DNA of 64,000 bases from an uncultured Actinomycetes bacterium (GTDB lineage Bacteria; Actinomycetota; Actinomycetes; Streptosporangiales; Streptosporangiaceae): contig CAWKOA010000031.1 in the NCBI GenBank assembly GCA_963851025.1, forward strand, positions 19,374 through 83,373, in the 5' to 3' direction. The notes below the pieces were generated by a model that was not told the origin of the DNA, made no database searches, and was given only the letters and a program-made list of their open reading frames with translations. Below, piece after piece: positions 3,559 to 58,933 of this stretch (the stretch's first letter is position 1; every line of letters begins with the position of its first letter). The position numbers were made by a program, and so were the translations under genes.

Positions 3559-3836
3559 CCCAGGAAGCCGCCGCCCGGCAGCTGGGCGTGTCGGTCAAGA
3601 CCGTGGGACGCTGGGTCGGCGGCGAGACCGAGCCCCGGCTCCGGGATCTGCGCCGCATCCAGGAACTGTTCGGAGAGCTTCCGTTCTCCTCCAGGCCCTC
3701 GCCAGGCCCGCCGCGGCCTGCCCAGGCAGGCCCGCCAGGACAGGACTGTCTCGTCTCAATTGCTGGACGTCCCCCCACAAGTGTCCTACGGTGCTGCCAT
3801 GGCCCTTCCTACGGGACGCTACCGGCTGGGCACTGA
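3528..3836 (+). CDS. XRE/Cro-type helix-turn-helix protein
   Basis: MSTALRREGLTQEAAARQLGVSVKTVGRWVGGETEPRLRDLRRIQELFG. ATFADW precedes the ATG in frame right after a TGA, so it may originally have been fused to the upstream ORF (a 1-bp indel would do it). The 3' tail overlapping the next gene is low-complexity and doubtful. Confidence 0.5.
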   Translation: MSTALRREGLTQEAAARQLGVSVKTVGRWVGGETEPRLRDLRRIQELFGELPFSSRPSPGPPRPAQAGPPGQDCLVSIAGRPPTSVLRCCHGPSYGTLPAGH

Positions 3837-4362
3837 GAGCGGCCGGATCGTCCTGCGCACGTTTCGCGACGGGCTGGCGGCCACCGCCGGCCACGATCTG
3901 GTCATCGAACTGCCCCGCTGGTCCGGCGAGCTGGTCGTCGACGACGACAAGGCCCCGGAATCCCTCGAGGTCCGCATCGACGCGGGCGCGCTCGTCGTCC
4001 GCGAGGGCACCGGCGGCCTCAAGCCGCTGACCGACCGGGACCGCCGCGAGATCGCGACGACCGCGCGGCGGCAGCTGTCCACCGACCAGCACCCGGAGGC
4101 GGTCTTCACCGCCACCCGCTTCGAGCTTTCGGGTGACAACGGGGTGATCGAGGGGAACCTCTCTATCCGGGGGGTGACGCGGCCGTTCCGGCTGCAGGTG
4201 AGCCAGCCCGAGCCGGGCAGCTACCGGGGCACCGGGACGCTGGTGCAGTCGGCCTACGGCATCAAGCCGTACACCGCGTTCTTCGGCGCGCTGAAGGTGC
4301 GGGACGCCGTCGATATCGAGGTAAATGCGGTCATTTCCGGGCCTGCGGACGACAGCGGATGA
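3799..4362 (+). CDS. YceI-like domain protein
   Basis: MALPTGRYRLGTESGRIVLRTFRDGLAATAGHDLVIE...IRGVTRPFRLQV...YGIKPYTAFFGALKVRDAVDIEV is the typical YceI family pattern. Confidence 0.8.
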   Translation: MALPTGRYRLGTESGRIVLRTFRDGLAATAGHDLVIELPRWSGELVVDDDKAPESLEVRIDAGALVVREGTGGLKPLTDRDRREIATTARRQLSTDQHPEAVFTATRFELSGDNGVIEGNLSIRGVTRPFRLQVSQPEPGSYRGTGTLVQSAYGIKPYTAFFGALKVRDAVDIEVNAVISGPADDSG

Positions 4363-4477
4363 GGCCGGCTTGGCCCATGGCCTTGCGGAGCCGGGCCGGG
4401 GGGAAGTAAGCCAGAGAAGGTAACCCGGGGCCGCCGGTCCTGGGGGCAGAGAGCGCAGCGGAAATGGCCGCGAGGAG

Positions 4478-5107
4478 ATGAGCGCAGCGCCATCGGCACC
4501 GGCAGGGGACAACGAGGTCGCCACACTGTTCGAGCGGCGCGCGGCCTCGGTTGACGAGCTGGCCGGGCACGCGGGCACGGTCGCGGCCGCCTGCCATGAC
4601 ATGGCCGTGCGCTTCCACCAGGGCGGCAAGCTGGTGGTGTTCGGCACCGGCGCGTCGAGCACCGACGCGCTGCACGTGGCGGTGGAATTCGTGCACCCGG
4701 TGATCGTCGGCAAGCGGGCCCTGCCGGCCATCTCGCTCACCGCCGACACCGCCACGGTGACCGGCATCGCCGAGCGCGAGGGCATGGGCGCGATCTTCGC
4801 CCATCAGATCCGCCACCTCGCCACCCCCGCCGACATCGCGCTGGGCCTGTCCGCCGACGGCAACTCCGAGAGCGTGCTGAACGGGCTGCTGACCGCGCAC
4901 GGCATGGGCATGCTGACGATCGCGCTGGCGGGCGCGGGCGGCGGCGTGATCGGCGGCAGCCCGGCGGTGGACCACATCCTGGTCACCACGGAAGCCGATC
5001 CCCGGGTGGTCAAGGAGGCGCACGTGACCGCGTACCACGTGCTGTGGGAGCTGGTCCACGTCTTCTTCGAGCAGCCCGGGGTGCTCGGCCCGGCGGTGGT
5101 CTCATGA
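4478..5107 (+). CDS. SIS-domain protein (GmhA/phosphoheptose-isomerase-like), hydrogenase-cluster associated
   Basis: GGKLVVFGTGASSTDALHVAVEFVHP...ALGLSADGNSESV...VKEAHVTAYHVLWELVHVFF. GAGGAG Shine-Dalgarno sequence before the ATG. Confidence 0.75.
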   Translation: MSAAPSAPAGDNEVATLFERRAASVDELAGHAGTVAAACHDMAVRFHQGGKLVVFGTGASSTDALHVAVEFVHPVIVGKRALPAISLTADTATVTGIAEREGMGAIFAHQIRHLATPADIALGLSADGNSESVLNGLLTAHGMGMLTIALAGAGGGVIGGSPAVDHILVTTEADPRVVKEAHVTAYHVLWELVHVFFEQPGVLGPAVVS

Positions 5108-5343
5108 GCGAGAGCGAGCCCGGCCCCGGCGGCGTGCAGCCACCCGAATGCCACGACGAGGTCTGCATCACCTGCTCGGACACCGCCGTCGCGGTGACCA
5201 TCGCCCGGCTGCTGCCGGACGGCCTGGCCGTGGTGGACACCGGGGCGGGCCAGGAAGAGGTCAGCGTGGCGCTGGTCGACGCCGGGGTCGGCGACACCAT
5301 CCTGGTGCACGCCGGCGAGGCCATCGCCGTGGTGCCGGCATGA
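5104..5343 (+). CDS. HupF/HypC-family hydrogenase assembly chaperone-like protein
   Basis: MSESEPGPGGVQPPECHDEVCITCSDTAVAVTIARLLPDGLAVVDTGAGQEEVSVALVDAGVGDTILVHAGEAIAVV. ATGA overlap with the previous stop. Confidence 0.7.
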   Translation: MSESEPGPGGVQPPECHDEVCITCSDTAVAVTIARLLPDGLAVVDTGAGQEEVSVALVDAGVGDTILVHAGEAIAVVPA

Positions 5344-6119
5344 CGAAGCGCAGCAGCGGCCAGGCCCGCGCCGGCCGTCGGCCAGGCCAGACCGGCCCGG
5401 CCGGTACCGGCCCGCGCAGCACCGGGCGGCGCAGCACCGCGCAGGACAGCAACGCGCAGGACAGCGCGACCGCCATGGAGGCGCTGTACCCGTTCCTGTA
5501 CTCCGGGGCCGCGCCCGACCTCGACGCGGTACTGGCCGAGGTGCGCGCGTCCACCGTGGCCAAGGCCCGGGAGATCACCGAGCTGCGGCAGGTCATCGCG
5601 GCCCGGGACGCGGCCCGGCTCGCCGCGTGCGCCGCGGAGATGGCGGAGCGGTTCGCGGCCGGCGGGCGGCTGCTCGCCTTCGGCAACGGGGGCAGCGCCA
5701 CCGACGCACAGGAGCTGGCCACGCTGTTCCTCGATCCGGGCCCCGGCGAGCGGGCGCTGCCCGCGTTCTGCCTGGCCAACGACACAGCGGTGGTCACCGC
5801 GCTGTGCAACGACGTCGGCGTCGAGGTGGTGTTCGCCCGCCAGATCGCCGCGTTCGGGCAGCCCCGGGACGTGGCCATCGGCCTGTCCACCAGCGGCAAC
5901 TCCGAGAACCTGCTCCGCGCCCTGGACGAGGCGGCCCGCGGTGGCCTGCTCACCGTGGGCATCGCCGGGTACGACGGCGGGAAGATGGCCGAGCTGGACA
6001 GCCTGGACTACCTGTTCGTGGCGCCATCGTCCTCGGTGCACCGGATCCAGGAGGCGCAGACCACCGTGTACCACACGCTGTGGGAGCTGACCGTGGCGTC
6101 GCTGGCCGGGGCCGGGTGA
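5340..6119 (+). CDS. Second SIS-domain protein with a basic, low-complexity N-terminal extension
   Basis: GGRLLAFGNGGSATDAQELATLF...AIGLSTSGNSENLLRAL...RIQEAQTTVYHTLWEL. ATGA overlap with the upstream gene. Confidence 0.75.
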   Translation: MTKRSSGQARAGRRPGQTGPAGTGPRSTGRRSTAQDSNAQDSATAMEALYPFLYSGAAPDLDAVLAEVRASTVAKAREITELRQVIAARDAARLAACAAEMAERFAAGGRLLAFGNGGSATDAQELATLFLDPGPGERALPAFCLANDTAVVTALCNDVGVEVVFARQIAAFGQPRDVAIGLSTSGNSENLLRALDEAARGGLLTVGIAGYDGGKMAELDSLDYLFVAPSSSVHRIQEAQTTVYHTLWELTVASLAGAG

Positions 6120-6655
6120 CCGGCGTGAGCGAGGCCGCGGGCCTGCCCGCCACCACGGGACGCACGCTCGTGGCCTGCCTGGGCAACATCTTCCTGGGCG
6201 ACGACGGCTTCGGCGTCGAGGTGGCACGGCGGCTGGCCCGCGAGCAGTTCCCCGAGGGGGTGCGGGTCACCGACTACGGCATCCGCGGCATGCACCTCGC
6301 CTACGACCTGGCCGAGGGATTCGACACGACGATCCTGGTCGACACCGCGCAGCGTGGTGACGCGCCCGGCACCGTCTACCTGATCGAGCCCGAGCGGGAC
6401 GCGGGCCAGGGCGGCCAGGGCCAGGGCGACGCCGCCCAGCTGAGCTTGTTCAACGCGCACGGCATGCAGCCAGACCTGGTGCTCAGCCTGGCTGGCTCGC
6501 TCGGCGGGGACGCCGGGCGGGTGCTGGTGGTGGGCTGCGAGCCTGCCACCCTGGAGGAGGGGATCGGGCTGAGCGCCCCGGTGACGGCCGCGGTGGACGA
6601 GGCCGTGGCCATGATTACCCGGCTGGTGACAGCCGGCCAGAACACTCACTCGTAG
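6116..6655 (+). CDS. Hydrogenase maturation endopeptidase (HupD/HyaD/HybD family)
   Basis: TLVACLGNIFLGDDGFGVEVARRL...VRVTDYGIRGMHLAYDL...ILVDTAQRGDAPGTVYLIEP...NAHGMQP...VLVVGCEP. GTGA overlap with the upstream stop. Confidence 0.85.
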   Translation: MTGVSEAAGLPATTGRTLVACLGNIFLGDDGFGVEVARRLAREQFPEGVRVTDYGIRGMHLAYDLAEGFDTTILVDTAQRGDAPGTVYLIEPERDAGQGGQGQGDAAQLSLFNAHGMQPDLVLSLAGSLGGDAGRVLVVGCEPATLEEGIGLSAPVTAAVDEAVAMITRLVTAGQNTHS

Positions 6656-6675
6656 ACCTGCGAAGAGGTGATCGC

Positions 6676-6948
6676 ATGTGCCTTGGCATCCCAGGCGAGG
6701 TGATCGAGTTCCTGCCCGATCAGCCCGACCTGGCCAGGGTGGACGTCAGCGGGGTCCGGCGGGTGATCAATGTCGGGCTGCTCTCCGACGACCTGCCGAA
6801 GCCGGGGGAATGGGTCCTCATTCACGTGGGCTTCGCGCTATCCAAGATCGACGAGGCTGAGGCGGCGGCCGCGCTGCAGTTCCTGGAGGGTATCGGCCAG
6901 GCCTACGCGGACGAGCTGGAAGCCCTCCAGGCATCCCAAATCGAGTAG
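6676..6948 (+). CDS. hypC: Hydrogenase assembly chaperone HypC
   Basis: Starts [12 protein letters not shown]...[13 protein letters not shown]...[17 protein letters not shown], the canonical HypC N-terminal Cys motif. Confidence 0.9.
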
Positions 6949-6959
6949 AGGGGGGCAGT

Positions 6960-8088
6960 ATGCGCTTCGTTGACGAATTCCGCTCTGCGGACAAGGCGCA
7001 CGCCCTGGCCGCGAAGATCGCCGGGCTGTGCGAGCCCGGGCGGCAGTACAAGCTGATGGAGGTGTGCGGCGGGCACACGCACACCATCTACAAGCACGGG
7101 CTCGAGGACTACCTGCCCGAGTCGATCACGCTGGTGCACGGCCCCGGCTGCCCGGTCTGCGTCATCCCGATGGGCCGGGTGGACGACGCGATGGCGCTGG
7201 CGTCCCAGCCGGACACCATCATGACCTCGTTCGGGGACATGATGCGGGTTCCCGGGCAGCCAGGGCTCGTTCTTCGACGCCAAGGCGCAGGGCACCGACA
7301 TCCGCATGGTGTACTCCCCGCTGGACTCGCTGAAGATCGCCCGGCAGAACCCGGACAAGCGGGTCGTGTTCATGGCCATCGGGTTCGAGACCACCACCCC
7401 GTCCACCGCGATGACCGTGCTCCGCGCGGCCGCCGAGAAGCTGGACAACTTCTCCATCTTCTGCAACCACGTCACGATCATCCCGGCCATCAAGGCCATC
7501 CTGGACTCGCCCGACCTGCGCCTGGACGGGTTCATCGGCCCGGGTCACGTGTCCACGGTGATCGGCTGCCGCCCGTACGAGTTCATCGCCCGCGACTACG
7601 GCAAGCCCGTGGTGGTGGCCGGGTTCGAGCCGCTGGACATCCTGCAGTCCATCTACATGCTGATGCTCCAGCTGTCCGAGGGCCGCAGCGAGGTGGAGAA
7701 CCAGTACACCCGGGTGGTGCCCTGGGACGGCAACCTGGCCGCGCTGAACGCGATCAACCAGGTCCTGGAGCTGCGCCCGTACTTCGAGTGGCGGGGGCTC
7801 GGTTTCATCTCGCACTCGGCGATGCGGGTCCGCCCCGAGTTCGCCAAGTACGACGCGGAACTGCTCTTCGAGGTGCCCGGCGTCCGGGTCGCCGACCCGA
7901 AGGCCTGCCAGTGCGGTGAGGTGCTCAAGGGCGTGCTGAAGCCGTGGGAGTGCAAGGTGTTCGGCACCGCGTGCACGCCGGAGACCCCCATCGGCACCTG
8001 CATGGTCTCCCCGGAGGGCGCCTGCGCCGCCTACTACAACTTCGGCCGGATGAACCGCCGCCGGGTGGTGGAAGTGAGCATCTCATGA
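6960..8088 (+). pseudogene. hypD: Hydrogenase maturation factor HypD; one frame break at 7261-7266
   Basis: [20 protein letters not shown]...[16 protein letters not shown]...[17 protein letters not shown]...GDMMRVPG, then [27 protein letters not shown]... continues in ORF 7306..8088 (...[10 protein letters not shown]...MVSPEGACAAYY). The shift sits at CCCGGGC. Confidence 0.9.
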
Positions 8089-9263
8089 CCGAGACCGGCA
8101 CCGGCCGGGGCAGCTGGGTCGACCAGGCCCTGCGCGAGCACGAGGAGCACGCCGGCCCAGAGCCGGCCAGCACCGGGCAGGCCGGCCGGACTTCCGACCG
8201 TGAGCAGCAGGTGCTCGACCGGATCGACCGGGCGCGGCGCCGGCGGCCCCGGGTCCGCGAGGACCGGATCACCATGTCCCATGGGGCCGGCGGGAAGGCC
8301 ACCAGGACCCTGGTCGAGGCGGTCTTCGTGGACGCGTTCAGCAACCCGCTGCTGGAGCCCCTGGAAGACTCCGCGCAGCTGCACGTGAACGGCGGCCGGG
8401 TCGCGCTGACCACCGACTCCTACGTGGTCTCGCCGCTGTTCTTCCCCGGCGGTGACATCGGCGACCTCGCGGTCAACGGCACCGTGAACGACCTGGCCGT
8501 GTCCGGCGCGACCCCGCTCTACCTGTCCGCCGGGTTCATCCTGGAGGAGGGCTTCCCGGTCACCGACCTGGTCGAGATCGTGGCCTCGATGAAGGCCGCG
8601 GCCCAGGTGGCCGGGGTGCAGGTGGTCACCGGGGACACCAAGGTGGTGCAGCGGGGCAAGGCCGACGGCTGCTACATCAACACCGCGGGCGTCGGCGTGA
8701 TCGAGCACGACATGTCGCTCGGCGTGGCCAACGCCCGGCCCGGCGACGCGGTGATCGTGTCCGGCCCGATCGGCGAGCACGGCGTGACCATCATGCTGGC
8801 CCGCGGCGAGCTGGACATCGAGGCCGACATCACCTCCGACACCGCGGCGCTCAACGGGCTGATCGCGGACCTGCTGGCGGCCACCCCCGGCGTCCGCGCG
8901 CTGCGCGACGCCACCCGCGGCGGCGTGGCGACCATCCTCAACGAGGTGGCCACGGCGGCCGGGGTCGGCGTGCTGGTCAACGAGGACGCGATCCCGGTGA
9001 GCACCGTGGTGCGCGGCGCCTCCGAACTGCTCGGCATCGACCCCATGTACGTGGCCTGCGAGGGCCGCATGGTCGCCGTGGTCGACGGCGGCGAGGCGGA
9101 CAAGGCCCTGGCCGCGCTGCGGGCCCACCCGCTGGGCGCGGACGCCGCGATCATCGGTCACATCACCGCGGACCCGCCGGGCCTGGTCCTGCTGAACACC
9201 GCGTTCGGCGGGACCCGCATCGTGGACCTGCTGGTCGGTGACCCACTGCCGCGCATCTGCTGA
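8086..9263 (+). CDS. hypE: Hydrogenase maturation carbamoyl dehydratase HypE, with an N-terminal extension
   Basis: ITMSHGAGGKATRTLVE...DLAVNGTVNDLAVSGATPLYLSAGFILEEG...VVTGDTKVV...DATRGGVATILNE...LVGDPLPRIC (C-terminal PRIC motif). ATGA overlap with hypD. Confidence 0.9.
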
Positions 9264-9273
9264 CGGGGGCACC

Positions 9274-9603
9274 GTGCACGAACTGGCGATCACCGAGGGG
9301 GTGGTGCAGGCGGTGACCGAGCGGCTGCCCGGCACGCCCATCGCCTGCGTGCACCTGGAGATCGGGGCCATGTCCGGGGTGGTCGCGGACTCCGTGCGGT
9401 TCTGCTTCGACCTGGTCACCGAGGGCACGACGCTGGAGGGCGCACGGCTGGACATCATCCAGCCCGCGGCCCGCTGCCGGTGCCGGGACTGCGGCGCGGA
9501 GTTCGAGCCGGCTGACGTGATCGCGCTGTGTGCCTGCGGCAGCGCCGACGTGGCCGTGCTGGCCGGCCAGGAACTGCGGATCACGTCCGTGGAGGTGGTG
9601 TGA
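9274..9603 (+). CDS. hypA: Nickel insertion protein HypA
   Basis: VHELAITEGVVQAV...CRCRDCGAEF...CACGS...GQELRITSVEVV. Zinc-site CxxC...CxxC pattern. Confidence 0.85.
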   Translation: MHELAITEGVVQAVTERLPGTPIACVHLEIGAMSGVVADSVRFCFDLVTEGTTLEGARLDIIQPAARCRCRDCGAEFEPADVIALCACGSADVAVLAGQELRITSVEVV

Positions 9604-9604
9604 C

Positions 9605-10417
9605 ATGTGCGCGACCTGCGGCTGCGGCGTGGCCGGCGTCCGGGTGTTCGGCCCGGGCCAGCTCGGCCCGGACGGCCACGACCACGCGGACGGCCATGAC
9701 CACGGAACCGATCACGCGCCCAGCCACGACCACGACCACGGCGGGCCCGCGCACGAGCACGGGCTGGACGGCCGCACCGTCCAGATCCAGCAGAACATCC
9801 TGGCCAAGAACGACCGCCTGGCCGGGGACAACCGGGCCTGGCTCACCGCCCGCGGCATCCTGGCCGTCAACCTGATGAGCTCACCGGGGGCCGGCAAGAC
9901 GACGCTGCTGGAGCGCACCGCCCGCGAGGCCGGCCCCGGGCTGGGCCTGACCGTGATCGAGGGCGATCAGGAGACCACGCTGGACGCGTCCCGCATCGAG
10001 GCGGCGGGCTGCGCGGTCGCGCAGATCAACACGGGCGCGGGCTGCCATCTGGACGCCAGCATGGTGGCCCGCGGGCTGCGCGCGCTCGACCCGCGCCCCG
10101 GCTCGGTGCTGGTCATCGAGAACGTCGGGAACCTGGTCTGCCCGGCCCTGTTCGACCTGGGCGAGGCGGCCCGCGTGGTGCTGTCCTCGGTCACCGAGGG
10201 CGCCGACAAGCCGGTCAAGTACCCGCAGATGTTCCGCGGCGCGGACCTGGTCCTGCTGACCAAGGTGGACCTGCTGCCGTACGTGGATTTCGACACCGGG
10301 CGGCACGCGCGGGACCTGCGGCTGATCAGCCCCGGCGCGCGGATCCTGCCTCTCTCGGCCACCTCGGGCGAGGGCCTGCCGGCCTGGTACGCCTGGCTCG
10401 CCGAGCGCGCCCGCTAG
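9605..10417 (+). CDS. hypB: Nickel metallochaperone GTPase HypB with a His-rich N-terminal stretch
   Basis: MCATCGCG, His-rich HDHADGHDHGTDHAPSHDHDHGGPAHEHG, P-loop SSPGAGKTTLL, ENVGNLVCPA, TKVDLLP. Confidence 0.9.
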   Translation: MCATCGCGVAGVRVFGPGQLGPDGHDHADGHDHGTDHAPSHDHDHGGPAHEHGLDGRTVQIQQNILAKNDRLAGDNRAWLTARGILAVNLMSSPGAGKTTLLERTAREAGPGLGLTVIEGDQETTLDASRIEAAGCAVAQINTGAGCHLDASMVARGLRALDPRPGSVLVIENVGNLVCPALFDLGEAARVVLSSVTEGADKPVKYPQMFRGADLVLLTKVDLLPYVDFDTGRHARDLRLISPGARILPLSATSGEGLPAWYAWLAERAR

Positions 10418-10660: not shown

Positions 10661-11203
10661 TCAGGCGGGATTCCAGTCGAGCCGGAACCACACGGCCGTG
10701 CCGCGGGTGGAACCGTCCCGGTAGGTGTGGTGGCCCCACCAGGCCGCCAGCGTCTGGACGGTGAGCAGCCCGTGCCCGGATTCCGCGAGCCTCCCGGGCG
10801 GGCCCGGGGACGGCGTGGGGGTGGTGGCGGACCCGTCGTCCAGCACGGCCACGCACGCGGACGTCCGCCCGCACCACACGAGGACCTGGAATTTCCCGCT
10901 CAGGCCGGTCCGGGTGTGCCGGATCGCGTTACTGGCCAGTTCCGACGCGCAGAGCAGGGCGTCGTCCACCACGGGACAGCCGTCCAGGACCCGGGCCACG
11001 AACCGGCGGGCCTGCGCGACCTGGTCCGGCCGCCCCGGGAACACGCGCCGTTTCGGCGTGGTGACCAGCCACGCGCCGTGCCAGGCCAGCTGGGTCAGCG
11101 AGCCCGCCGGCCGGGTGTGCGGCGGGACACCGGACGGCACCGGCGGCGCGAAAGCCGCCGCGGCCCGGGCCGCGGGGGCGGCAGTTGGTGAGCTGCCCAA
11201 CAT
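10661..11203 (-). CDS. ATP-binding regulatory protein (anti-sigma-factor-like HATPase_c_2 family), orphan copy
   Basis: MLGSS...RRVFPGRPDQVAQARRFVARVLDGCPVVDDALLCASELASNAIRHTRTG...FQVLVW...ACVAVLDDG...ESGHGLLTVQTLAAWWG. GGAGAGG lies upstream of the ATG at 11203. Confidence 0.75.
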   Translation of the reverse strand: MLGSSPTAAPAARAAAAFAPPVPSGVPPHTRPAGSLTQLAWHGAWLVTTPKRRVFPGRPDQVAQARRFVARVLDGCPVVDDALLCASELASNAIRHTRTGLSGKFQVLVWCGRTSACVAVLDDGSATTPTPSPGPPGRLAESGHGLLTVQTLAAWWGHHTYRDGSTRGTAVWFRLDWNPA

Positions 11204-11303
11204 GTCGCCTCTCCCCATCGAGATGTGGTATGTCCGCTTTTGCCTCCCCCACTCTGCCGGTAACTGGTGCTGTTTTGCTAGAGGCTGGATGCACAAAAGG
11301 CAT

Positions 11304-11325
11304 CATCAATTCGTAAATGGACGCC
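11304..11325. repeat. Right copy of the imperfect direct repeat flanking the HATPase gene
   Basis: See the 10479..10500 entry. 16 of 18 aligned positions are shared, with a 1-nt gap. Confidence 0.4.
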
Positions 11326-11370
11326 GTGCCGGTTGACTTTGCCCCCGGGGCCAGCCCCAGCATCGGGGCT

Positions 11371-12273
11371 CATGACCGGCCGTTCCTGGCGCCTGTGCCC
11401 GCCCCCCGGCTTCGCGGGACCGGGGCCGCCCCGCCTGGCTCCCCCGCAGCCAGGGCCACCCAGCCCGCTATCGCGCCCGCCGCGTTCCGCCGGCTCGCGT
11501 CCGCGGCCACGATCTCCGGCCTCGGGGACAGCGTCACCCAGGTCGCGGGCGCCCTGCTGGCCCTGTCGCTGACCCGCAGCCCGCTCCGCCTGACCGGGCT
11601 GCCCGCCGCGGAGCAACTCCCCTGGGCCCTGGGTGCCCTGCCCGCCGGCGCGGGCGCATCCGCCCGGGTCCCCCGCGGCACCTGGCGGGCATCCATTGGG
11701 CGAGGGCCTGGCCTGGCTGCCCGGGCACCGGCCGCTCCGTGCGCTGGCCCTGGCCGCGGCCCTGTCCAACCTGGGGCTGGGTGCCCTGTTCTCGGTGTTC
11801 ACGTTGTTCGCCCGGGCCCGGCTGGGCAGCGGCCCGCTCGGCTACGGCGTGCTGCTGGCGGTGATAGCCGCCGGGGGCCTGCCCGGCGGCCTGGCCGCGG
11901 GCCGGGTGATCCCGGCCGTGGGCGCGGGCCCGGCGCTGCGGGCAGAACTCGTCCTGGAAGCGCTCAGCTACCTGGGCCTGCTGCTCACCCGGAGCCCGGG
12001 GGCGGCGGCCGCGCTGCTGGCCTTCCTGGCCGCGAACCTGACCCTGTTCTCGTCCGTGGGCGCGGCGCTGCGGCAGTCCCTGGCCCCGCCCGGGATGCTG
12101 GTCCGGGTCCAGGGCGCCTACCGGGCGGTCAGCAACGGCGGGATGCTGGCCGGCGCGGCCCTGGGCGGCCTGCTCACCACGGTGGCCGGCCTGACGCCCC
12201 GCTCTGGCTCGGCCTGGCCGCCAGCACCGCGGTCAGCGCCCTCACCTGGCGCGCCTTCGGCACCCTGCGCTAG
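11371..12273 (+). pseudogene. MFS transporter (MFS_3/EntS-like) remnant: frame breaks plus an apparent loss of central helices
   Basis: Pieces in three frames: FRRLASAATISGLGDSVTQVAGALLALSLTRSPLRLTGLPAAEQLPWALGALPAGA; LAWLPGHRPLRALALAAALSNLGLGALFSVFTLFARARLGSGPLGYGVLLAVIAAGG...MLVRVQGAYRAVSNGGMLAGAALGGLL; APLWLGLAASTAVSALTWRAFGTLR. The total span is about 300 codons, against the roughly 400 expected. Confidence 0.6.
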
Positions 12274-12433
12274 CGGGTCAGGGCCCGCTTCGTCCAGCGG
12301 CGCCCTCCCAGCCGGCTCGGTCCCGGACCGCGCCCACCCGGCCCGCAGGCAGACCGGGTGATCCAGCCGATCGCGCCGGCCGGATAGAGGCACAAAATCT
12401 GCCATTGCGCGCTGGCTGCGGTATGGCGTACTT

Positions 12434-13228
12434 TTGATTTTGGAGGGCTTGGGGGGTGTTTCAGCCTTGGCTGGTGACCAGCGGTGTGCTGCGTGCGGAG
12501 AGCAAAATAGGGATTTAGCCCGCTTTTGCCGCAATTGTGGTTCCCCGCTCGAGGTTTCTTCCGGGCAGGAATCGGTGGACCGCAGCCGGGACACCGATCC
12601 CGGGCCGGTCAACATTGGCCCAGAGCCGCCAGTGTACGAAACGGCCCCGGGCGCCAGGCGAGGGCGATCTGGGTGGTTTCCGGTCGCCGTGCCACTAGCC
12701 ATCGTCCTTTTGGCTGGGACGCTGGCGGTCGTCGGGTGGCAGACTCACTGGCCGCGCGCCATCTTCGGGGTCAGGCAGGCCGCCGCGGCGAAACAGATCC
12801 CGACGCGGCCGGTGTCCACTGCGGCTTCCGGAATTGCGGGCTCTGGCGGGTCCAGCTCGCCACCCGCTCCCAACTCGGCGGGATCAGGGAGCCCGACCGC
12901 ATCGGCCACGGCCACAGCCAGTGCCACTGGCCCGCCCGTAACCACGGCCGTCATCATCGTGAAGGAATACTTCGCGGCCATTAATCATGGGCATTACGCG
13001 AAAGCCTGGCGGCTGGGTGGCAGTAACTTCAGCCCTTCCTTCGCGGCCTATGTCGCCGGCTTCCAGGGCACTGTTCATGATGTCGTCACTATTATCTCGG
13101 TCAAGGGCAGTGTCGTGACCGCCGGCCTGTCCGCACTCCAGGCCGACGGTACCACAAAAGTCTACCAGGGTACCTACACCGTCGTTAATGGCGTCATCAC
13201 CAAGTCGAGCATTCGTCAGGTGTCCTGA
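12434..13228 (+). CDS. Zinc-ribbon membrane protein (N-terminal CxxC-x11-CxxC, one TM helix, Ser/Pro linker, small C-terminal extracytoplasmic domain)
   Basis: DQRCAACGEQNRDLARFCRNCGSPL; TM helix WFPVAVPLAIVLLAGTLAVVGW; C-terminal IIVKEYFAAINHGHYAKAWRLGGSNFSPSFAAYVAGFQGTVHDVVTIISVKGS...YQGTYTVVNGVITKSSIRQV. The start codon is uncertain (TTG at 12434). Confidence 0.7.
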   Translation: MILEGLGGVSALAGDQRCAACGEQNRDLARFCRNCGSPLEVSSGQESVDRSRDTDPGPVNIGPEPPVYETAPGARRGRSGWFPVAVPLAIVLLAGTLAVVGWQTHWPRAIFGVRQAAAAKQIPTRPVSTAASGIAGSGGSSSPPAPNSAGSGSPTASATATASATGPPVTTAVIIVKEYFAAINHGHYAKAWRLGGSNFSPSFAAYVAGFQGTVHDVVTIISVKGSVVTAGLSALQADGTTKVYQGTYTVVNGVITKSSIRQVS

Positions 13229-13275
13229 GCAGCATCAGCAGCCGGTGACCGGGGACCGCCGAAAGGGTTAGTTAA

Positions 13276-14397
13276 ATGACGTGCTCTAATTGCAGCAGGA
13301 CGATCGATCCTTCGTCGAGTTTCTGTGATTTCTGCGGCACCCCGGTGGAGACCGGGACCAGCGGGGATACGGCCGGTTACCGTGCGCCCTACTCCCGGGA
13401 GGCGCAAGGCGATCCCTGGGTCACCGGCCCGCCTGACCTGGGCCCGCCTGACCTGGGCCCGCCTGACCTGGGGCCGCCGGACATGGGGCCGCCCGACATG
13501 GGGCCGCCCGACATGGGACGGGCGGACGCGGGGCCGCCGGCGGTGGCCCCGGGCACGCTCCCCGTCCCGCAGCCCGGTGCTCCGCTCGACCGTCACTGGC
13601 CCGGCGGGCCAGCCGGAATGGGACCGGCCGGGACACCCGCCCCCAGGGCGGCGGAGGCGTTTCCCAGCCCGTCTCCTCCTCCCAGCCCCTCTCCTGCTCC
13701 CGGCCCGCCTGCTCCGCCCAGCCCCGCGGTCCTGCGCGGATCGCCCATCCTGCTCGGCTACCAGGAGCGCGTACTGCGGGAGTACGGGGCCGTGCAGTTG
13801 CGTAACCGGGCCCACGGTGAAGGCATCCTCTACGTCACCGATTCCCGGGTGGTCTTCTACGCCAAGGCCAGGGGCCGGGGCACGCAGCGCGGCAGCACAC
13901 TCATACAGCAGACCAACGTGGCCGACATCACCGGCATTACCGCGTACGTCTCCCGCCGGGTGAGCCTGGCCCTCTTCTTCCTGACCTGCATCTTCCTGCT
14001 GTTCGGCCTGTCTGCTCTCTTCGTGTTCCCCCCAGTAGCGATCTTCTGGTTCATCCTGGCCGTCATCTGCGTCATCGCGCTGGTGGGGGGCGCAGCCAGG
14101 CGCGGCAGCACCGGGGTGATCATCAATTCCCGCAACGACGGGCACAGCCCGATCTCGTTCGGGACGTTCCAGACCCGGCGTGGCTTCATCGGCAGCCTGA
14201 CCCAGGCGCTCGGTGCCCCGTTCTTCTCCCTGTTCGGCATCTTCACCGTGTTCGACGTGCTCGACGGCTACCCCGGGCGGGACTCCAGCCAGATCATCAG
14301 CGAGCTGGGCGCCCTGATCCTCGACATCCAGACCCGGGGCGATCTCGCCTACGACCATTACGGCCGGGAACATGACCAGCAGCCTGCCCGCGGGTAA
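13276..14397 (+). CDS. Zinc-ribbon / Pro-rich repeat / PH-GRAM-like / two-TM membrane protein
   Basis: MTCSNCSRTIDPSSSFCDFCGTPV; (GPPDL)3(GPPDM)3; GEGILYVTDSRVVFYAKARGRGTQRGSTLIQQTNVADITGITAYVSRR. Two hydrophobic helices: LALFFLTCIFLLFGLSALFVF and VAIFWFILAVICVIALVGGA. AAAGGG Shine-Dalgarno sequence before the ATG. Confidence 0.8.
   Translation: MTCSNCSRTIDPSSSFCDFCGTPVETGTSGDTAGYRAPYSREAQGDPWVTGPPDLGPPDLGPPDLGPPDMGPPDMGPPDMGRADAGPPAVAPGTLPVPQPGAPLDRHWPGGPAGMGPAGTPAPRAAEAFPSPSPPPSPSPAPGPPAPPSPAVLRGSPILLGYQERVLREYGAVQLRNRAHGEGILYVTDSRVVFYAKARGRGTQRGSTLIQQTNVADITGITAYVSRRVSLALFFLTCIFLLFGLSALFVFPPVAIFWFILAVICVIALVGGAARRGSTGVIINSRNDGHSPISFGTFQTRRGFIGSLTQALGAPFFSLFGIFTVFDVLDGYPGRDSSQIISELGALILDIQTRGDLAYDHYGREHDQQPARG
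13426..13515 (+). repeat. Six tandem 15-bp repeats (ggcccgcctgacctg x3, gggccgccSgacatg x3) encoding GPPDL/GPPDM; two degenerate units follow to 13545
   Basis: Read directly from the sequence. In frame within CDS 13276..14397. Confidence 0.9.
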
Positions 14398-14415
14398 GCC
14401 GGAAAGGCCACCAGC

Positions 14416-15768
14416 GTGACATCCATGCCCAGCGCCCGTGGTCCGGCAGAGGAGCAGGCGTGGGCCAAGGTGTCCCTGCTGGAGGGAATGACCGTCCAGG
14501 CGCCGCCGCAGGACGTTGGCCCCCGGAACGAGGGCCAGCCCATGCTGGCCATGGTGCCCGGGCAGTTCGGGCGCCTCTGGTTCGATGCCGAGTACCTCAG
14601 CCGCCACGTGCTCTTCCTCGGCGGGATCGGCACCGGCAAGTCGAATGCGATGTACCAGCTGCTCGACCCGCTGCGGCGGAGCGCCGGAAGGGACGACATC
14701 TTCGTTATCTTCGACACGAAGGGGGATTTCCTGGATAACTTCTACCGCGACGGGGACGCCGTTATCTCCAGCACCCCGGATAAAGACCAGGGCGGGGTAC
14801 GGTGGAACCTGTTCTGCGACCTGCTGGAGCCGGACGCCCACGAGCGCGCCGAGCAGGTCCACGAGATTGCCTCCACCGTGTTCGGCGAGGCCCTGGAGCA
14901 GGAGCGCGAGAACATCTTCTTCGCGATGGCCGCCCGGGACATCTTCGCGGCCGTGGTGGAGGCCATGTCCGGGCAAGGCAAGAATTATTCCAATGCGGAT
15001 CTGCGAAGCCAGCTCGAATTGCCCGCCGAGGAATTGCTCGAATTCCTGGACGTCGCGGAAAACCCGCACCTGGCCGGGGTGGCCCGGTACCTCGAGGGGG
15101 ACCGCAGGCCCGAGGACATCCTGGCCTTCCTGCAGCAGACGCTGAACAAATCGTTCTCCGGGGTCTTCCGCCTGCCCGGCTCTTTCTCGGTGCGCAACTT
15201 CATACGCGGCAAGGGCGCCCGGGCGCTCTTCGTCGAGTACGACATAGCGTCAGGGAACCGCCTGCTCCCGGTGTACCGCGTTCTTATTGACATGGCGATC
15301 AAGGAGGCACTCGGCCTGGGCCGGGCCAAATCGCCCGGGAACGTGTTCTTCGTTCTCGATGAATTCGCGCTCCTGCCCCAGCTGGCCCACATCAGTAACG
15401 GCATCAATTTCGGCCGGTCCCTGGGGCTGAAGTTCATCGTCGGAACGCAGAACGTCAACCAGGTCCTCAAGGCCTACGGGGCGGAGAGCGGGTCCAGCAT
15501 CCTGTCCGGTTTTGGCAGTGTCCTGGCCTTCCGGCTCATGGATGACGCCAGCCGTGAGCTGGTGCGCCAGCGCTTCGGCGCCAACCGCAAGCAGATCACC
15601 ATCAACGCCCATGTCAGGACGGAAGGGGTTCAGCAGCTCGTCGTCGCGGGAAACGTGATCGAAGACTGGGTGCTATCCAGCCTGATGGTCGGCCAGTGTG
15701 TCGTCTCGCTGCCCGAAGGCGGCCCTTTCTTCTTCGCCGTCCAGAGGTACCAGCCGCCGGGCCGGTGA
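14416..15768 (+). CDS. Soluble FtsK/HerA-superfamily P-loop ATPase with type IV coupling protein (VirD4/TraG/TraD/TrwB)-like motif order
   Basis: Walker A LFLGGIGTGKSNAMY (about 14620-14643). Walker B VFFVLDEFALLP (15343-15366). FIVGTQNVNQVLKAYG resembles the T4CP Q-motif. No N-terminal TM segment. GTG start 18 nt after the upstream stop, with GGAAAGG upstream. Confidence 0.85.
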   Translation: MTSMPSARGPAEEQAWAKVSLLEGMTVQAPPQDVGPRNEGQPMLAMVPGQFGRLWFDAEYLSRHVLFLGGIGTGKSNAMYQLLDPLRRSAGRDDIFVIFDTKGDFLDNFYRDGDAVISSTPDKDQGGVRWNLFCDLLEPDAHERAEQVHEIASTVFGEALEQERENIFFAMAARDIFAAVVEAMSGQGKNYSNADLRSQLELPAEELLEFLDVAENPHLAGVARYLEGDRRPEDILAFLQQTLNKSFSGVFRLPGSFSVRNFIRGKGARALFVEYDIASGNRLLPVYRVLIDMAIKEALGLGRAKSPGNVFFVLDEFALLPQLAHISNGINFGRSLGLKFIVGTQNVNQVLKAYGAESGSSILSGFGSVLAFRLMDDASRELVRQRFGANRKQITINAHVRTEGVQQLVVAGNVIEDWVLSSLMVGQCVVSLPEGGPFFFAVQRYQPPGR

Positions 15769-15773
15769 AACGC

Positions 15774-16481
15774 TCAGTGGATTCGGGGTCCCGAGTAGGG
15801 CGGGGCCACCCGCAGGCCCGGCTCGGCGCGGTCAGCGATGTAATGAACCGTGATCACCTCGACCGCCCGGACCGTCGCGTCGCCCCATTCGACGGCGTTG
15901 TGGGCTACGGCATGAGGACCGGCCCCCGCCATGGCCAGGGTCACCGCCAGGAGAAGCCCCCTGACCTTGCCGAGTGCTTTCCGGGCCTTCCGCCGCCAGG
16001 CCGGGCTCCCGGCGGGACGTGACGCGTCGCCGATCTGGCTCGCCAGCCCGCACACTTCCGCCTGAAGGGACTTCACCCGGTCAGCCGCCTGGCTGAACAA
16101 CTGCTGGCGCCCCATCCGGGGAAAGCGCCGGGCCGTGGCTGCGACCTTCTCGCGTGCTTCGTCCACGAGCGACTCCGGGACCACGACCCCGCCCTGGCTG
16201 GCCCGGGCCAGGGCATCCTTCAGCGCCGGGCCGAGAAAGCTGGCCAGCTCCTTCTGGGTGGGCACCAGGTCCCTGATGGGGATGTCACTTGCGGGGCGGG
16301 CCTGGTCCCACCAGGCGTCGGCCAGCCAGTCCTTGAGCAGGTCGCATGCTTCGGCGCAGCCCTGAGCTAACAGCCTGTCCTGTTCCGGCCCCGGCAAGGT
16401 GCTGCTGGCGGAGGTCCTGGTGACCGCCTCGCCAATGTGGGCTTGCACGAGGGCGATCCGCTCGACAGTCACGCTGGGCAC
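15774..16481 (-). CDS. Hypothetical helical protein with one C-proximal TM helix, 36 nt downstream of proS
   Basis: ORF of 235 aa. GGGGGGA lies 5-6 nt before the GTG start. LLLAVTLAMAGAG is a hydrophobic segment near the C-terminus. No recognisable family. Confidence 0.6.
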   Translation of the reverse strand: MPSVTVERIALVQAHIGEAVTRTSASSTLPGPEQDRLLAQGCAEACDLLKDWLADAWWDQARPASDIPIRDLVPTQKELASFLGPALKDALARASQGGVVVPESLVDEAREKVAATARRFPRMGRQQLFSQAADRVKSLQAEVCGLASQIGDASRPAGSPAWRRKARKALGKVRGLLLAVTLAMAGAGPHAVAHNAVEWGDATVRAVEVITVHYIADRAEPGLRVAPPYSGPRIH

Positions 16482-18023: not shown

Positions 18024-18911
18024 ATGCGCGAGAATGGGGCCGTGGCTGACACGTTCGCATCCCGGTTCGCCCGGGCGCGGTCTGGCCCCGGGCCGCTGGT
18101 GTGGGGCCTGGACCCATCGGGAGCCCTGCTCCAGGCGTGGGGGCTGGGCGATGACCCGGATGGCCTGGATCGCTTCGCCGACATCATGCTCGACGCCGCG
18201 TCCGGGACCGTGGGACTGGTCAAGCCTCAGTCCGCCTTCTTCGAGCGGCACGGCTGGCGTGGGTTCCGGACGCTCAGCCGGCTCATCGCAGAAGCCCGGA
18301 GCGCCGGGCTGCTGGTCGTCCTGGACGTCAAGCGCGGCGACGTGGGCAGCACCAACGACGCCTACGCGGAGGCGTTCCTCGGCCCGGCCGCCCCGCTGGA
18401 GGCCGACGCCGTCACCGTCCACCCCTATCTCGGGCTGGCGGCCATGGACGCCTTCGTCTCGCGGGCCCACCAGGCCGGGAGCTGCCTGCTGGTCGTCACC
18501 CGTTCCTCCAACCCGGAGGGCCGGGCGATCCAGTCCGCCCGCGGCGAGGGCGGCCGCCAGGTCGATGAAGCGCTGCTGGGCGAGATCGGGGCCCTGAACC
18601 GGATGCTGGCGGGGGGCGAGATCGGCCCGGTCGGTGCCGTGATCGGGCCGGCCCGCATCGAGCCTGAGCTCGACCTGGCCCGTGCCCAGGCGCTGTTCCT
18701 GGCCCCCGGCGTCGGCGCGCAGGGGGCGACCCCCGAGGACGTGGCCCAGGTCTTCGCGTCCTGCCCCGACCGGGTCATGCCCAGCGCGTCGAGGTCACTG
18801 CTGCTGGCCGGCCCCGGCATCAGCGCCCTGCAGGACGGGGCCGCCGCCCTGGCCGCCGAGTTCCGCAGGCTACTTCCCGCCCGGGGGAACGCCGCCGCAC
18901 AGACTCCCTGA
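18024..18911 (+). CDS. pyrF: Orotidine 5'-phosphate decarboxylase (type 2, long form)
   Basis: PLVWGLDPS...VGLVKPQSAFFERHGWRG...VVLDVKRGDVGSTNDAYA...DAVTVHPYLG...LLVVTRSSNPEG...FLAPGVGAQG. Confidence 0.85.
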   Translation: MRENGAVADTFASRFARARSGPGPLVWGLDPSGALLQAWGLGDDPDGLDRFADIMLDAASGTVGLVKPQSAFFERHGWRGFRTLSRLIAEARSAGLLVVLDVKRGDVGSTNDAYAEAFLGPAAPLEADAVTVHPYLGLAAMDAFVSRAHQAGSCLLVVTRSSNPEGRAIQSARGEGGRQVDEALLGEIGALNRMLAGGEIGPVGAVIGPARIEPELDLARAQALFLAPGVGAQGATPEDVAQVFASCPDRVMPSASRSLLLAGPGISALQDGAAALAAEFRRLLPARGNAAAQTP

Positions 18912-18920
18912 ACGAGGGCG

Positions 18921-19487
18921 TCACCGGACGGGGCGGACGTGGCCCGCTGCGGCACCCGGCAGTGCATCAGCAGGCCAGGCCAGCTGGAACCAGACGGCGC
19001 GGCCGGGTAAGCCGGCCGGGCCGAGTTCCTGCTGGCCCCAGGTGGCCGCGAGGTCGGTGACCACGCGCAGCCCGTGACCGGATTCGGCCAGGTCCTCCGG
19101 CCCGGGCGCGCGGGGCGCGGGGCCGTGCGGCGCACCTTCATCGATGACCGCCACGCAGGCCGAGACACGGCCCCGCCAGACCAGGACCTCGAACCGGCCG
19201 CCCTGGCCGGAGCGGGTGTGCTGGATCGCGTTGCTGGCCAGCTCGGATACGCAGAGCACCGCGTCGTCCGCCGCCGGGCAGCCTGCCAGGGCCCGGGCCA
19301 CGAACCGGCGGGCCTGGCGGACCTGGTCCGGGCGGCCGGGAAAGACCCGCCGCCGGGGGCTGGCCACCAGCCGCGCACCCTGACCGGCGATCTGGGCCAG
19401 GGACCCGGCGGGGGCGGCCGGCCCGGCCATGGCGCTGGACCGGGCCGGAACGCGGGCGGCGGCGCGCGTTGACATCCGGGCCTCCAA
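18921..19487 (-). CDS. ATP-binding regulatory protein (anti-sigma-like HATPase), paralog of 10661..11203
   Basis: RRVFPGRPDQVRQARRFVARALAGCPAADDAVLCVSELASNAIQHTRSG...FEVLVW...ACVAVIDEG...ESGHGLRVVTDLAATWG. Near-identical motif string to the 10.7-kb copy. Confidence 0.75.
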   Translation of the reverse strand: MEARMSTRAAARVPARSSAMAGPAAPAGSLAQIAGQGARLVASPRRRVFPGRPDQVRQARRFVARALAGCPAADDAVLCVSELASNAIQHTRSGQGGRFEVLVWRGRVSACVAVIDEGAPHGPAPRAPGPEDLAESGHGLRVVTDLAATWGQQELGPAGLPGRAVWFQLAWPADALPGAAAGHVRPVR

Positions 19488-58615: not shown

Positions 58616-58933
58616 CCCGCGATGCCGGGCCGTAGCGCGGCCCCGGACCACGGGGTGCATATCGCGGACCAGGTTCCCCACGGTGGGCGTCTCGCCCATG
58701 TAGGCCGCACGAACGGGGCGTTCGGACTCGACCGCGTAGTCCGGCGCAGGCGTGAGCGGCCGGTCTGGCGGGGCTATTTCCCCGCCGCGCGGGCTCCAGA
58801 TCTCGTCCGGGTGCACGGCGCGCGTTGGGGTGAACGTCCCAGCCGTCTTACTCACGCTGGGCGCGGCCGGGCCACGTAATGTGCCACCACCCACAAGGGT
58901 TATCTCATCCGGGTTCATCGGGGCTCCGTTCAT
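58562..58933 (-). CDS. Hypothetical protein (element cargo)
   Basis: 123-aa ORF with GC-biased third codon positions. Convergent, with a 54-nt overlap with the recombinase 3' end. No recognisable motifs. Confidence 0.35.
   Translation of the reverse strand: MNGAPMNPDEITLVGGGTLRGPAAPSVSKTAGTFTPTRAVHPDEIWSPRGGEIAPPDRPLTPAPDYAVESERPVRAAYMGETPTVGNLVRDMHPVVRGRATARHRGLADTRIIGRRVVGHLRG

Follow-up and report, generated by a model that had tools for sequence, protein, structure and literature searches.

Type IV coupling proteins (T4CPs) such as TrwB and VirD4 canonically possess two N-terminal transmembrane (TM) helices. Here we describe a T4CP-like ATPase, g3, that lacks these helices and is encoded directly next to a membrane protein, g2, with a predicted helical hairpin. 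Both genes belong to a cassette (g1 to g4) on a 64,000-nucleotide stretch of contig CAWKOA010000031.1 (GCA_963851025.1, Streptosporangiaceae). This stretch is in the following called the window, and all coordinates are window positions unless a related locus is named. The conserved core of the cassette is the pair of g2 and g3, which is found across several phyla. We consider the cassette as a possible split coupling protein that works independently of a type IV secretion system (T4SS): the hairpin of g2 would tether a ring of g3, and the ring would recruit or translocate tail-bearing partner proteins, possibly also DNA. We assign this reading a probability of roughly 40%.

Compared with TrwB of R388, TraD of F and VirD4/TraG, g3 has a homologous ATPase domain in which Walker A, Walker B and the GTQN motif follow in the same order. 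It differs from these T4CPs by the missing N-terminal TM stalk, by the lack of relaxase or VirB4/mating-pair genes nearby and by the pairing of its family with a hairpin protein that is pleckstrin homology (PH)-like, seen in 49 of 54 loci. Because both an own TM stalk and a linkage to relaxase and T4SS genes are missing, we set g3 apart from the conjugative T4CPs and file it as T4CP-like, not as a conjugative coupling protein.

Streptomyces TraB, an ATPase of the FtsK/HerA superfamily that associates with the membrane, can move DNA without a T4SS. It contains an FtsK_SpoIIIE domain and a TM domain of its own and resides on plasmids or on actinomycete integrative and conjugative elements (AICEs), whereas g3 is of the TrwB type and chromosomal, with no mobile-element genes within 10 kb. 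In type VII secretion, found in single-membrane phyla, an ATPase of the FtsK/HerA superfamily (EccC/EssC) acts with small membrane partners and reads the C-terminal tails of its substrates. This system provides a conceptual parallel from another ATPase family (g3 against T7SS_EccC_b: E=0.088), and no WXG100, EccB, EccD or EssB genes are present in the cassette.

A further comparison concerns the Dot/Icm system, in which DotL has its own TM anchor and DotN binds zinc. The likeness is a functional analogy only: there a T4CP ATPase is teamed with one partner anchored in the membrane and another that binds zinc, and the cassette family offers zinc-ribbon partners and acidic, aromatic-tailed proteins. 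Unlike g3, DotL anchors itself; the cassette also lacks a type IVB secretion apparatus, and the Pfam scans of g1 and g2 list no Dot/Icm family. The Legionella DotL-DotM-DotN complex is reported to bind Glu-rich C-terminal substrate signals (PMC5802825, PMC7280309) and is a precedent for substrate recruitment by T4CP complexes via C-terminal signals. Outside bacterial conjugation, the VirD4-like ATPase CedD acts with small membrane proteins in archaeal Ced/Ted DNA import, and some CedD homologues are without a TM domain, for which membrane binding via partners has been proposed (10.1101/2024.09.27.615169). The Ced system, however, requires the polytopic channel CedA, the pilins CedA1/A2 and the VirB4-like CedB, for which the cassette has no counterpart. 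In full-text searches of open-access papers, no account was found of a T4CP that goes together with a PH-like hairpin protein.

The ATPase and its hairpin partner

An earlier note, made from the sequence of the window, had described three co-oriented genes with gaps of 47 and 18 nt. The three open reading frames (ORFs) were confirmed, the gap being 47 nt between g1 and g2 and 18 nt between g2 and g3 (Table 1). What the note had overlooked is a fourth conserved gene, g4, which is convergent with g3 and ends only 5 nt from it, stop codon to stop codon. The cassette is a four-gene unit, g1 to g4, and not one of three genes. Against the orthologues in three related genomes, the ratio of nonsynonymous to synonymous substitution rates (Ka/Ks) was 0.26-0.28 for g1, 0.17-0.22 for g2, 0.10-0.12 for g3 and 0.13-0.19 for g4. 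Values in this range (0.10-0.28) indicate that all four are real genes under purifying selection.

Judged from its sequence, g3 is clearly a soluble P-loop ATPase of the T4CP family (TrwB/TraD/VirD4-like) with intact catalytic motifs. Three T4CP families of Pfam matched above their cut-offs: TrwB_AAD_bind with 148.6 bits (E=3.1e-43, cut-off 20.5), TraG-D_C with 41.5 bits (E=1.5e-10, cut-off 22) and T4SS-DNA_transf with 38.9 bits (E=6.4e-10, cut-off 20.1). When the g3 family profile was compared with the PDB, TrwB (1e9r/1gl6) was the sole clear solved relative, with E=4e-18. The Walker A, Walker B and GTQN motifs contain residues that are invariant across an alignment of 22 homologues (Table 1). 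No TM segment was detected in g3, its Kyte-Doolittle maximum of 1.48 remaining below the threshold of 1.6. The earlier description of a T4CP-like protein without a membrane anchor of its own is thus borne out by the Pfam match, the TrwB structure and the hydropathy scan. An equivalog match to a named conjugative T4CP was not obtained among the NCBIfam models: TraD_Ftype reached 85.3 against a cut-off of 521, and the others stayed far below theirs.

Homologues of g3 comprise at least 1,912 proteins at E<=1e-5, which the source databases label as hypothetical or generically as "type IV secretion system DNA-binding domain". The best 120 of them are mostly about 400-475 aa long, apart from a few shorter partial entries and one fusion of 548 aa. 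This fusion to an XRE helix-turn-helix (HTH) domain (P0086) is the only one among the top 120, and no fusion between g2 and g3 occurs in this set. Gene callers often start members of the family at M43, which yields a protein of 408 aa and leaves out the 42 upstream codons (14416-14541). Since an N-terminal motif, L22-E23-G24, is kept across the family and across phyla (as "VFEGxEL" in the Chloroflexi versions), the 450-aa form of g3 is probably the correct one.

The hairpin partner g2 consists of an N-terminal zinc ribbon, a Pro-rich disordered linker and a PH/GRAM-like beta domain that is interrupted by the TM hairpin. As the two ends of the hairpin lie on the same side and the zinc ribbon is N-terminal, g2 is predicted to be a cytoplasmic protein that is pinned to the membrane. 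The AlphaFold2 (AF2) model is confident between residues ~150 and 360. It contains five strands (166-226), the two hairpin helices (231-250 and 252-274), further strands (278-296) and then helices; in the Kyte-Doolittle scan the hydrophobic hairpin extends over residues 224-278. A long C-terminal helix (337-362) holds the family motif ELGALILDxQTRGD, in which E343, G345, A346, L347, I348, D350, Q352, R354 and G355 are invariant. The GPPD[L/M] repeat of the linker occurs in about 2 to about 10 copies among homologues, such that the linker length differs even between close relatives.

The assignment of the beta domain as PH/GRAM-like, also put forward in the earlier note, is tentative: the signals from Pfam, the PDB and Foldseek are concordant, but none of them is individually significant. 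Pfam GRAM matched g2 with 18.6 bits (E=1.7e-3), below the cut-off of 23.6. Sub-threshold GRAM matches were also obtained for three g2 homologues (E from 1.6e-4 to 2.7e-3), and one homologue gave a sub-threshold match to bPH_3. Against the PDB, the g2 profile found the PH-GRAM domain of BBS5 with E=1.5e-3. The top Foldseek matches of the AF2 model were almost all PH domains, at a best E of 0.04 and with low TM-scores. We consider the domain PH-like but not proven to be a PH domain.

Related loci were collected by scanning one genome per species (185,579 species) with two peptide patterns, such that the carrier counts are lower bounds. The scan yielded 50 loci, most of them in soil Actinomycetota (Streptosporangiaceae, Acidimicrobiia, Solirubrobacterales, Microbacterium, Sinomonas). 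The remaining carriers are Chloroflexota, Clostridia, Kiritimatiellia, Bdellovibrionota, Slackia and one archaeal metagenome-assembled genome (MAG); most carriers belong to largely single-membrane phyla. The closest relatives were Streptosporangiaceae-type MAGs and not Streptomyces, and the identity of the ATPase dropped roughly with taxonomic distance.

All-against-all clustering of the flanking ORFs provided three conserved neighbour families: g2 (43 of the 50 loci), g4 (20) and g1 (13). Every other family was present in at most five of the 50 loci or consisted of antisense shadow ORFs. A profile hidden Markov model (HMM) found a g2-family member beside the ATPase in the 49 of 54 loci mentioned above, from Actinomycetota, Chloroflexota, Bacillota and others, and one of the five loci without it is cut by a contig end. 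This larger set takes in cultured Sinomonas, Microbacterium, Curtobacterium (megaplasmid pS16) and Paenibacillus (megaplasmids). The position of g2 is directly upstream in most actinobacterial loci, and there it ends within a few nt of the ATPase start or overlaps it, where ORF calls in high-GC loci are heuristic and starts are ORF-derived. Taken alone, the g2 family comprises 453 representative clusters at E<=1e-10 among 1.8 billion representatives, part of which match via the zinc ribbon alone.

The ATPase is thus linked to a zinc-ribbon/TM partner family in other genomes as well. The earlier note had proposed g2, and possibly g1, as the membrane anchor and sensor; the linkage fits g2 as the membrane partner, while g1 turned out to be clade-specific. 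Given that g3 has no canonical pair of N-terminal TM helices and g2 has such a hairpin, we infer a T4CP that is split over two genes, with g2 as its putative anchor and sensor according to linkage and topology.

Partner genes that vary between clades

The clade-dependent partner genes are the most informative clue to the function of the cassette. Type A, to which the window belongs, comprises 21 loci; here the ATPase is preceded by g1 and g2, and g4 is convergent with it. The zinc ribbon of g1 matched Pfam DUF7577 (30.4 bits) and Zn_Ribbon_1 (27.2 bits), both over cut-off. The earlier note had seen zinc ribbons in g1 and g2; both are present, but the spacing in g1 is x10 and not x11. The TM helix of g1 is followed by a Ser/Pro linker and a C-terminal domain of ~90 aa, for which neither a Pfam match nor a PDB sequence match was obtained, the zinc ribbon being the only part of g1 that matches. 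The family alignment shows invariant C18, C21, C32 and C35 as well as the motif GWQTxWPxAxFG; the position of its TTG start may be off by a few codons. A phmmer search detected g1 in another 17 loci, with E<=1e-20 in 14 of these. We regard g1 as a clade-specific accessory partner and not as part of the core. A second, g1-like protein with a zinc ribbon and a TM helix recurs up- or downstream of the ATPase in many loci, and the frequency of such ORFs close to the ATPase is ~16x that in the far flanks. In 14 loci the g1-like protein is missed by the g2 HMM, and further ones match this HMM via the zinc ribbon alone.

The other partner of type A, g4, is likewise a clade-specific component, located directly downstream of the ATPase in the 20 loci obtained by BLAST clustering (21 loci by HMM). 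Its AF2 model is all-helical and confident, with a predicted local distance difference test score (pLDDT) of 84 and a predicted template modelling score (pTM) of 0.83. Cys42, Cys46 and Cys144 are conserved. The C-terminal tail is non-helical and carries conserved Arg and Pro residues (RVAPPxxGPRxx; consensus RVAPPRxGPRxR). No family of Pfam, NCBIfam, PADLOC or PHROG matched g4. Despite the confident model no similar structure was found in the PDB or among viral predicted structures, and there was no PDB sequence match.

Type B loci (11-12, including the archaeal MAG) carry a co-oriented gene, g5, of 180-236 aa directly 3' of the ATPase. The profile of the C-terminal half of g5 matches PqqD (PDB 3g2b, E=5.2e-5) over the whole PqqD domain, while single g5 sequences reach 0.075 at best against Pfam PqqD. 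PqqD is a peptide-binding fold and serves as recognition element in pathways for ribosomally synthesized and post-translationally modified peptides (RiPPs). A locus with both g4 and g5 was never observed, and profile-profile comparison showed no relationship between the two.

Type C is found in Chloroflexota, Clostridia, Bdellovibrionota and Kiritimatiellia and, as a variant, in Microbacteriaceae. Two g2 paralogues that lack zinc ribbons are present in most of these loci, and a single one in some. The gene immediately 5' of the ATPase encodes a protein with a variable head, an acidic stretch and a conserved aromatic/Gly C-terminus; in 11 loci, spread over several phyla, an ORF for a protein with such a stretch and tail ends just before the ATPase gene (Table 1). 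Four loci have a HExxH head and one, L040, a PD-(D/E)XK head (PF12705, 27.3 bits, cut-off 22). The HExxH-headed partners matched DUF6782 and SprT only below threshold and had no relative in the PDB. The tails of type C read ...DYYYSYGQ, YYGYGQ, QYGYGY, YYQSYGY, SYGFLR, VYSYGY, GYGMGM and ...DYYGYGQ, those of the Microbacteriaceae (EP)n...SWGGGWA, ...EPDW and ...GPSGW. Within an alignment of six tail-bearing proteins, Y283 and G286 are invariant. An aromatic/Gly tail on unrelated heads looks like a recognition tag.

For a split coupling protein the following mechanism can be envisaged. The hairpin of g2 would stand in, in trans, for the two-helix N-terminal stalk, such that six copies would bring the number of TM helices to 12, the same as for TrwB. 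The PH/GRAM-like domain and the C-terminal helix of g2 would dock the g3 hexamer on the inner face of the membrane. There, g3 would spend ATP to engage and thread a polymer, i.e. to unfold, translocate or deliver partner proteins. The likeliest substrate would be a partner protein that is read by its conserved C-terminal tail. The candidate in the window is g4 with its Arg/Pro tail; equivalents in other clades may be the PD-(D/E)XK- or HExxH-headed proteins with an acidic stretch and a Y-x-Y-G tail, or the PqqD-like peptide-binding adaptor. With its zinc ribbon, TM helix and outside domain, g1 would act as an accessory partner on the envelope side. The output would be the recruitment and translocation or membrane delivery of the partners, plausibly in microbial conflict, with DNA as another candidate substrate. 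A more far-reaching proposal is that g2 and g3 are the core of an unrecognised minimal system for protein translocation or effector delivery, mostly in single-membrane bacteria. Here the hairpin would be the stalk or conduit, and cargo would be chosen by C-terminal tails (Y-x-Y-G, or the Arg/Pro tail of g4) and, for peptides, by PqqD-like adaptors. In this extended form we judge the proposal unlikely.

Several points weigh against a split coupling protein that handles tailed partners. To our knowledge, no ring of 12 hairpin helices conducts proteins. A polytopic channel protein (VirB6-like) is not conserved with the core, and a cell-wall hydrolase of the NlpC/P60 type was present in one locus only, on the Curtobacterium plasmid pS16. 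The PH/GRAM signal is weak in each single test, albeit concordant. The conserved tail is the only hint at g4 as a possible cargo, and the type of the window has no acidic-tailed enzyme. Finally, nuclease and protease partners fit the role of defence effectors equally well.

Genomic context and alternative roles

In the window, the larger ORFs scanned within about 10 kb of the cassette included no relaxase, VirB4, FtsK or integrase gene. The absence of a conjugation or phage context in the earlier note is therefore confirmed, and conjugation genes were not recurrent in related loci either. For these loci, the 130 nearest non-core neighbours from 45 loci were compared with Pfam and PADLOC, and the most frequent families are reported. 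Relaxase, VirB4, FtsK and integrase were not among the recurrent Pfam families; the commonest were response regulators, HAMP, GAF, sigma-70, WD40 and DUF72, each with at most four proteins. Two related loci with precomputed annotation agree in having no conjugation context. Beyond g1, g2, g4 and g5, no conserved neighbours were found in the 50 loci. In a search of 72,556 plasmids, classical conjugative T4CPs were ~26-27% identical to g3, and the one inspected as a control is 674 aa long and followed by a MobF relaxase gene. A conjugative element or integrative and conjugative element (ICE) was rejected, as no relaxase, VirB4, FtsK or integrase gene is found within 10 kb or recurrently and the true T4CP adjoins MobF. 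A prophage was rejected as well, since none of 50,697 phage records contained a homologue; PHROG matches were limited to weak P-loop similarity.

The plasmid pS16 of Curtobacterium sp. (L053, 9441-17224) carries a homologue of 45% identity, followed by genes for a single-stranded DNA-binding protein (SSB), a HNH endonuclease, a 745-aa NlpC/P60 protein, TraR/DksA and a DEAD/DEAH helicase. This region may be a replication or transfer-type region. Plasmids with close homologues, pS16 included, are typed as non-mobilizable.

The pS16 neighbourhood bears on the question whether the cassette could be a translocase for conjugation or mobilisation in minimal or degenerate form, TraB- or Ced/CedD-like, that moves DNA across the single membrane. 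DNA is the established substrate of T4CPs, TrwB is the closest solved structure, and the XRE HTH fusion (P0086) would also fit with DNA. CedD sets a precedent outside classical conjugation, including homologues without a TM domain (10.1101/2024.09.27.615169). However, genes for a relaxase, VirB4, FtsK/TraB, replication or integration are neither conserved along with the core nor found within 10 kb. The true conjugative T4CPs are distant in sequence, the inspected one is longer and beside a relaxase, and the plasmid typing speaks against mobilisation. The peptide-binding and tail-bearing partners, moreover, suggest proteins as substrates. We consider DNA transfer as the main role very unlikely.

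The partner genes (nuclease-like or HExxH tailed proteins, PqqD-like proteins) point to protein recruitment or translocation by a split coupling protein at least as strongly as to defence. A conflict role, which the earlier note had considered, would mean that a membrane-tethered ring senses, grabs or pumps incoming phage or plasmid DNA and triggers effectors: membrane damage by g2 or g1, the nuclease or zincin partners, or g4 as regulator or effector. This would be in line with the patchy spread over phyla, the homologues on megaplasmids and the variable accessory genes, among them the PD-(D/E)XK and HExxH proteins. Synteny with the flanks of the window is confined to the four closest genomes, and the GC content of the cassette (12434-16481) is atypical, with 0.670 compared to 0.724 for the whole window. 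Some loci adjoin genes for DISARM DrmA/DrmD, a DRT reverse transcriptase, Cas1, HEPN/MNT or methyltransferases. Such defence-type neighbours (DISARM, DRT, Cas1) support the conflict role weakly, as they account for only one or two loci each, and most of the 130 neighbours are regulators and housekeeping genes. Other points also speak against the conflict role: the flanks in the window are hyp genes, proS and pyrF, the ATPase is under strong purifying selection (Ka/Ks 0.10-0.12), its identity tracks taxonomic distance roughly, and phage records contain no homologue.

As in the earlier note, no named defence system was recognised: in PADLOC-DB v2.0.0 no family matches g1, g2 or g4, a system-level match is lacking, and g3 matches mad8 and HerA only. 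The triad of g1 to g3 corresponds to no described system in PADLOC or the open-access literature. The match of g3 to PDLC04140 mad8 of MADS (E=2.3e-12) counts in favour of a defence role; it covers model positions 17-256 of 314 and reflects generic P-loop similarity. HerA models matched with E of 1e-4 to 9e-3 over ~50 residues around Walker A, and NCBIfam HerA_antiphage scored 17.9 against a cut-off of 800. The DNA-modification components of MADS are a methylase, a specificity subunit and a kinase (10.1101/2023.03.30.534895). Genes for these are absent from the cassette and its immediate vicinity, as is a Sir2 or DUF4297 partner expected for HerA-based defence. Membership in MADS or in a HerA system was rejected, because the ATPase similarity is partial and the partner genes are absent. 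Taken together, we regard anti-phage or anti-plasmid defence as the main rival to the split coupling protein, possible yet somewhat doubtful. By eye, one Chloroflexi locus (L040, 12644-14770) adjoins a SNF2/DISARM-like helicase gene according to its motifs, and the archaeal locus (L041, 3690-5505) a DNA-methyltransferase-like gene (SPPY) and a small GIY-YIG-like ORF.

The flanks of the cassette had been described as a decayed MFS gene and proS/pyrF, which the ORF scan confirmed. In total, the larger ORFs scanned over ~10 kb on either side encode YceI, SIS-domain and hyp proteins, HATPase_c_2 kinases, the decayed MFS transporter, ProS, PyrF, XRE, ABC and TetR proteins and a two-component pair. 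Two paralogues of HATPase_c_2 (anti-sigma-type kinases) bracket the cassette. In loci L001 and L002 these two genes directly flank the cassette, whereas in the window and in L003 a prolyl-tRNA synthetase gene is inserted between g4 and the second kinase. The orotidine monophosphate (OMP) decarboxylase gene is present in the window only. The MFS transporter gene is broken across two frames; its distal part alone matches, with MFS_3 near and MFS_1 below the Pfam cut-off, and in L003, a 96%-identical relative, ~35 aa of it are left. Further upstream lie hydrogenase-maturation genes, preceded by a YceI gene and two SIS-domain genes (upstream stretch 3760-10417). The GC content at third codon positions (GC3) is 0.71 for g1 and 0.85-0.87 for g2-g4, compared to 0.88-0.96 in neighbouring genes.

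The mixture of regulators around the cassette also bears on a lineage-specific housekeeping or developmental role at the envelope, e.g. in handling DNA or protein at the septum or in connection with sporulation in mycelial actinomycetes. Regulators are common among the neighbours, anti-sigma-type kinases and SpoIIE/STAS proteins being examples, selection is strongly purifying, and the syntenic position in the closest genomes suggests vertical inheritance there. Against such a role, 50 loci in 185,579 species genomes, a lower bound from two patterns, suggest rarity. Among the carriers are non-mycelial Chloroflexota, Clostridia, Kiritimatiellia, Bdellovibrionota and one archaeal MAG, the accessory genes and their surroundings differ between loci, and the base composition is atypical for the window. 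We find this role improbable.

Far from the cassette, the window contains a single tRNA gene, tRNA-Pro (CGG), and, at a distance of 41 kb, a gene for a large serine recombinase (Resolvase + Recombinase + Zn_ribbon_recom). The region 58000-62000 behind the recombinase has a GC content of 0.65-0.69 compared to 0.72 for the window, and the two together may be an integrated element.

Table 1. Genes and sequence features of the cassette and its surroundings, and related loci with partner genes
Feature	Position in window, or loci	Strand	Details
g1	12434-13228	+	264 aa, TTG start
g1 zinc ribbon CxxC-x10-CxxC	12485-12538	+	residues 18-35; Pfam, alignment
g1 TM helix	12668-12745	+	residues 79-104; Kyte-Doolittle maximum 2.44
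g1 conserved C-terminal domain, predicted extracytoplasmic	12947-13225	+	conserved block in g1 family alignment
g2	13276-14397	+	373 aa
g2 zinc ribbon CxxC-x10-CxxC	13282-13335	+	residues 3-20
g2 linker tandem repeat, 15-nt unit	13426-13517	+	Tandem Repeats Finder (TRF): 6.1 copies, 94% matches; encodes 6x GPPD[L/M]
g2 PH/GRAM-like strands 1-5	13753-13953	+	residues about 160-226; AF2 pLDDT about 90 or higher
g2 TM helical hairpin	13966-14097	+	residues 231-274 (AF2); Kyte-Doolittle maximum 2.85
g2 strands 6-7 and cytoplasmic helices	14107-14361	+	alignment and AF2 model
g3	14416-15768	+	450 aa
g3 Walker A GGIGTGKS	14620-14643	+	residues 69-76; G69, I71, G72, G74, K75 invariant
g3 Walker B VFFVLDEF	15343-15366	+	residues 310-317; D315, E316 invariant
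g3 GTQN motif	15442-15453	+	residues 343-346; Q345, N346 invariant
g4	15774-16481	-	235 aa, convergent with g3
g5 loci	L007, L013, L017, L018, L020, L025, L029-L031, L041, L045		absent from window
Tail-bearing protein loci	L035, L037-L040, L042, L044, L050, L028, L032, L053		
YceI gene	3760-4362		
Two SIS-domain genes	4478-6119		
HypC-like ORF	6676-6948		assigned by eye from N-terminal sequence
hypE	7944-9263		
hypA	9238-9603		
hypB	9530-10417		
HATPase_c_2 paralogue, first	10661-11296	-	
Decayed MFS transporter gene	11317-12361		
Prolyl-tRNA synthetase gene	16518 to about 18000	-	
OMP decarboxylase gene	about 18150-18911	+	
HATPase_c_2 paralogue, second	18921-19487	-	
tRNA-Pro (CGG)	28874-28950	-	
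Large serine recombinase gene	57179-58615	+	

Implications of a possible solo coupling protein

In annotation, genes of this kind should not be taken as a sign of a conjugative element. T4CPs are usually studied as gatekeepers that pass DNA or effectors to a large T4SS, and a stalk-less clade with a near-obligatory PH-like hairpin neighbour is an unusual setting for them. Should the cassette be a defence system, it would add a new type of sensor and motor to the bacterial immune repertoire. If the reading as a minimal translocation system were true, the cassette would provide a test bed for whether a coupling protein can act as an autonomous translocase. If g2 and g3 form a working membrane motor, they would represent the simplest known setting in which a coupling protein acts solo and reads the tails of its substrates.

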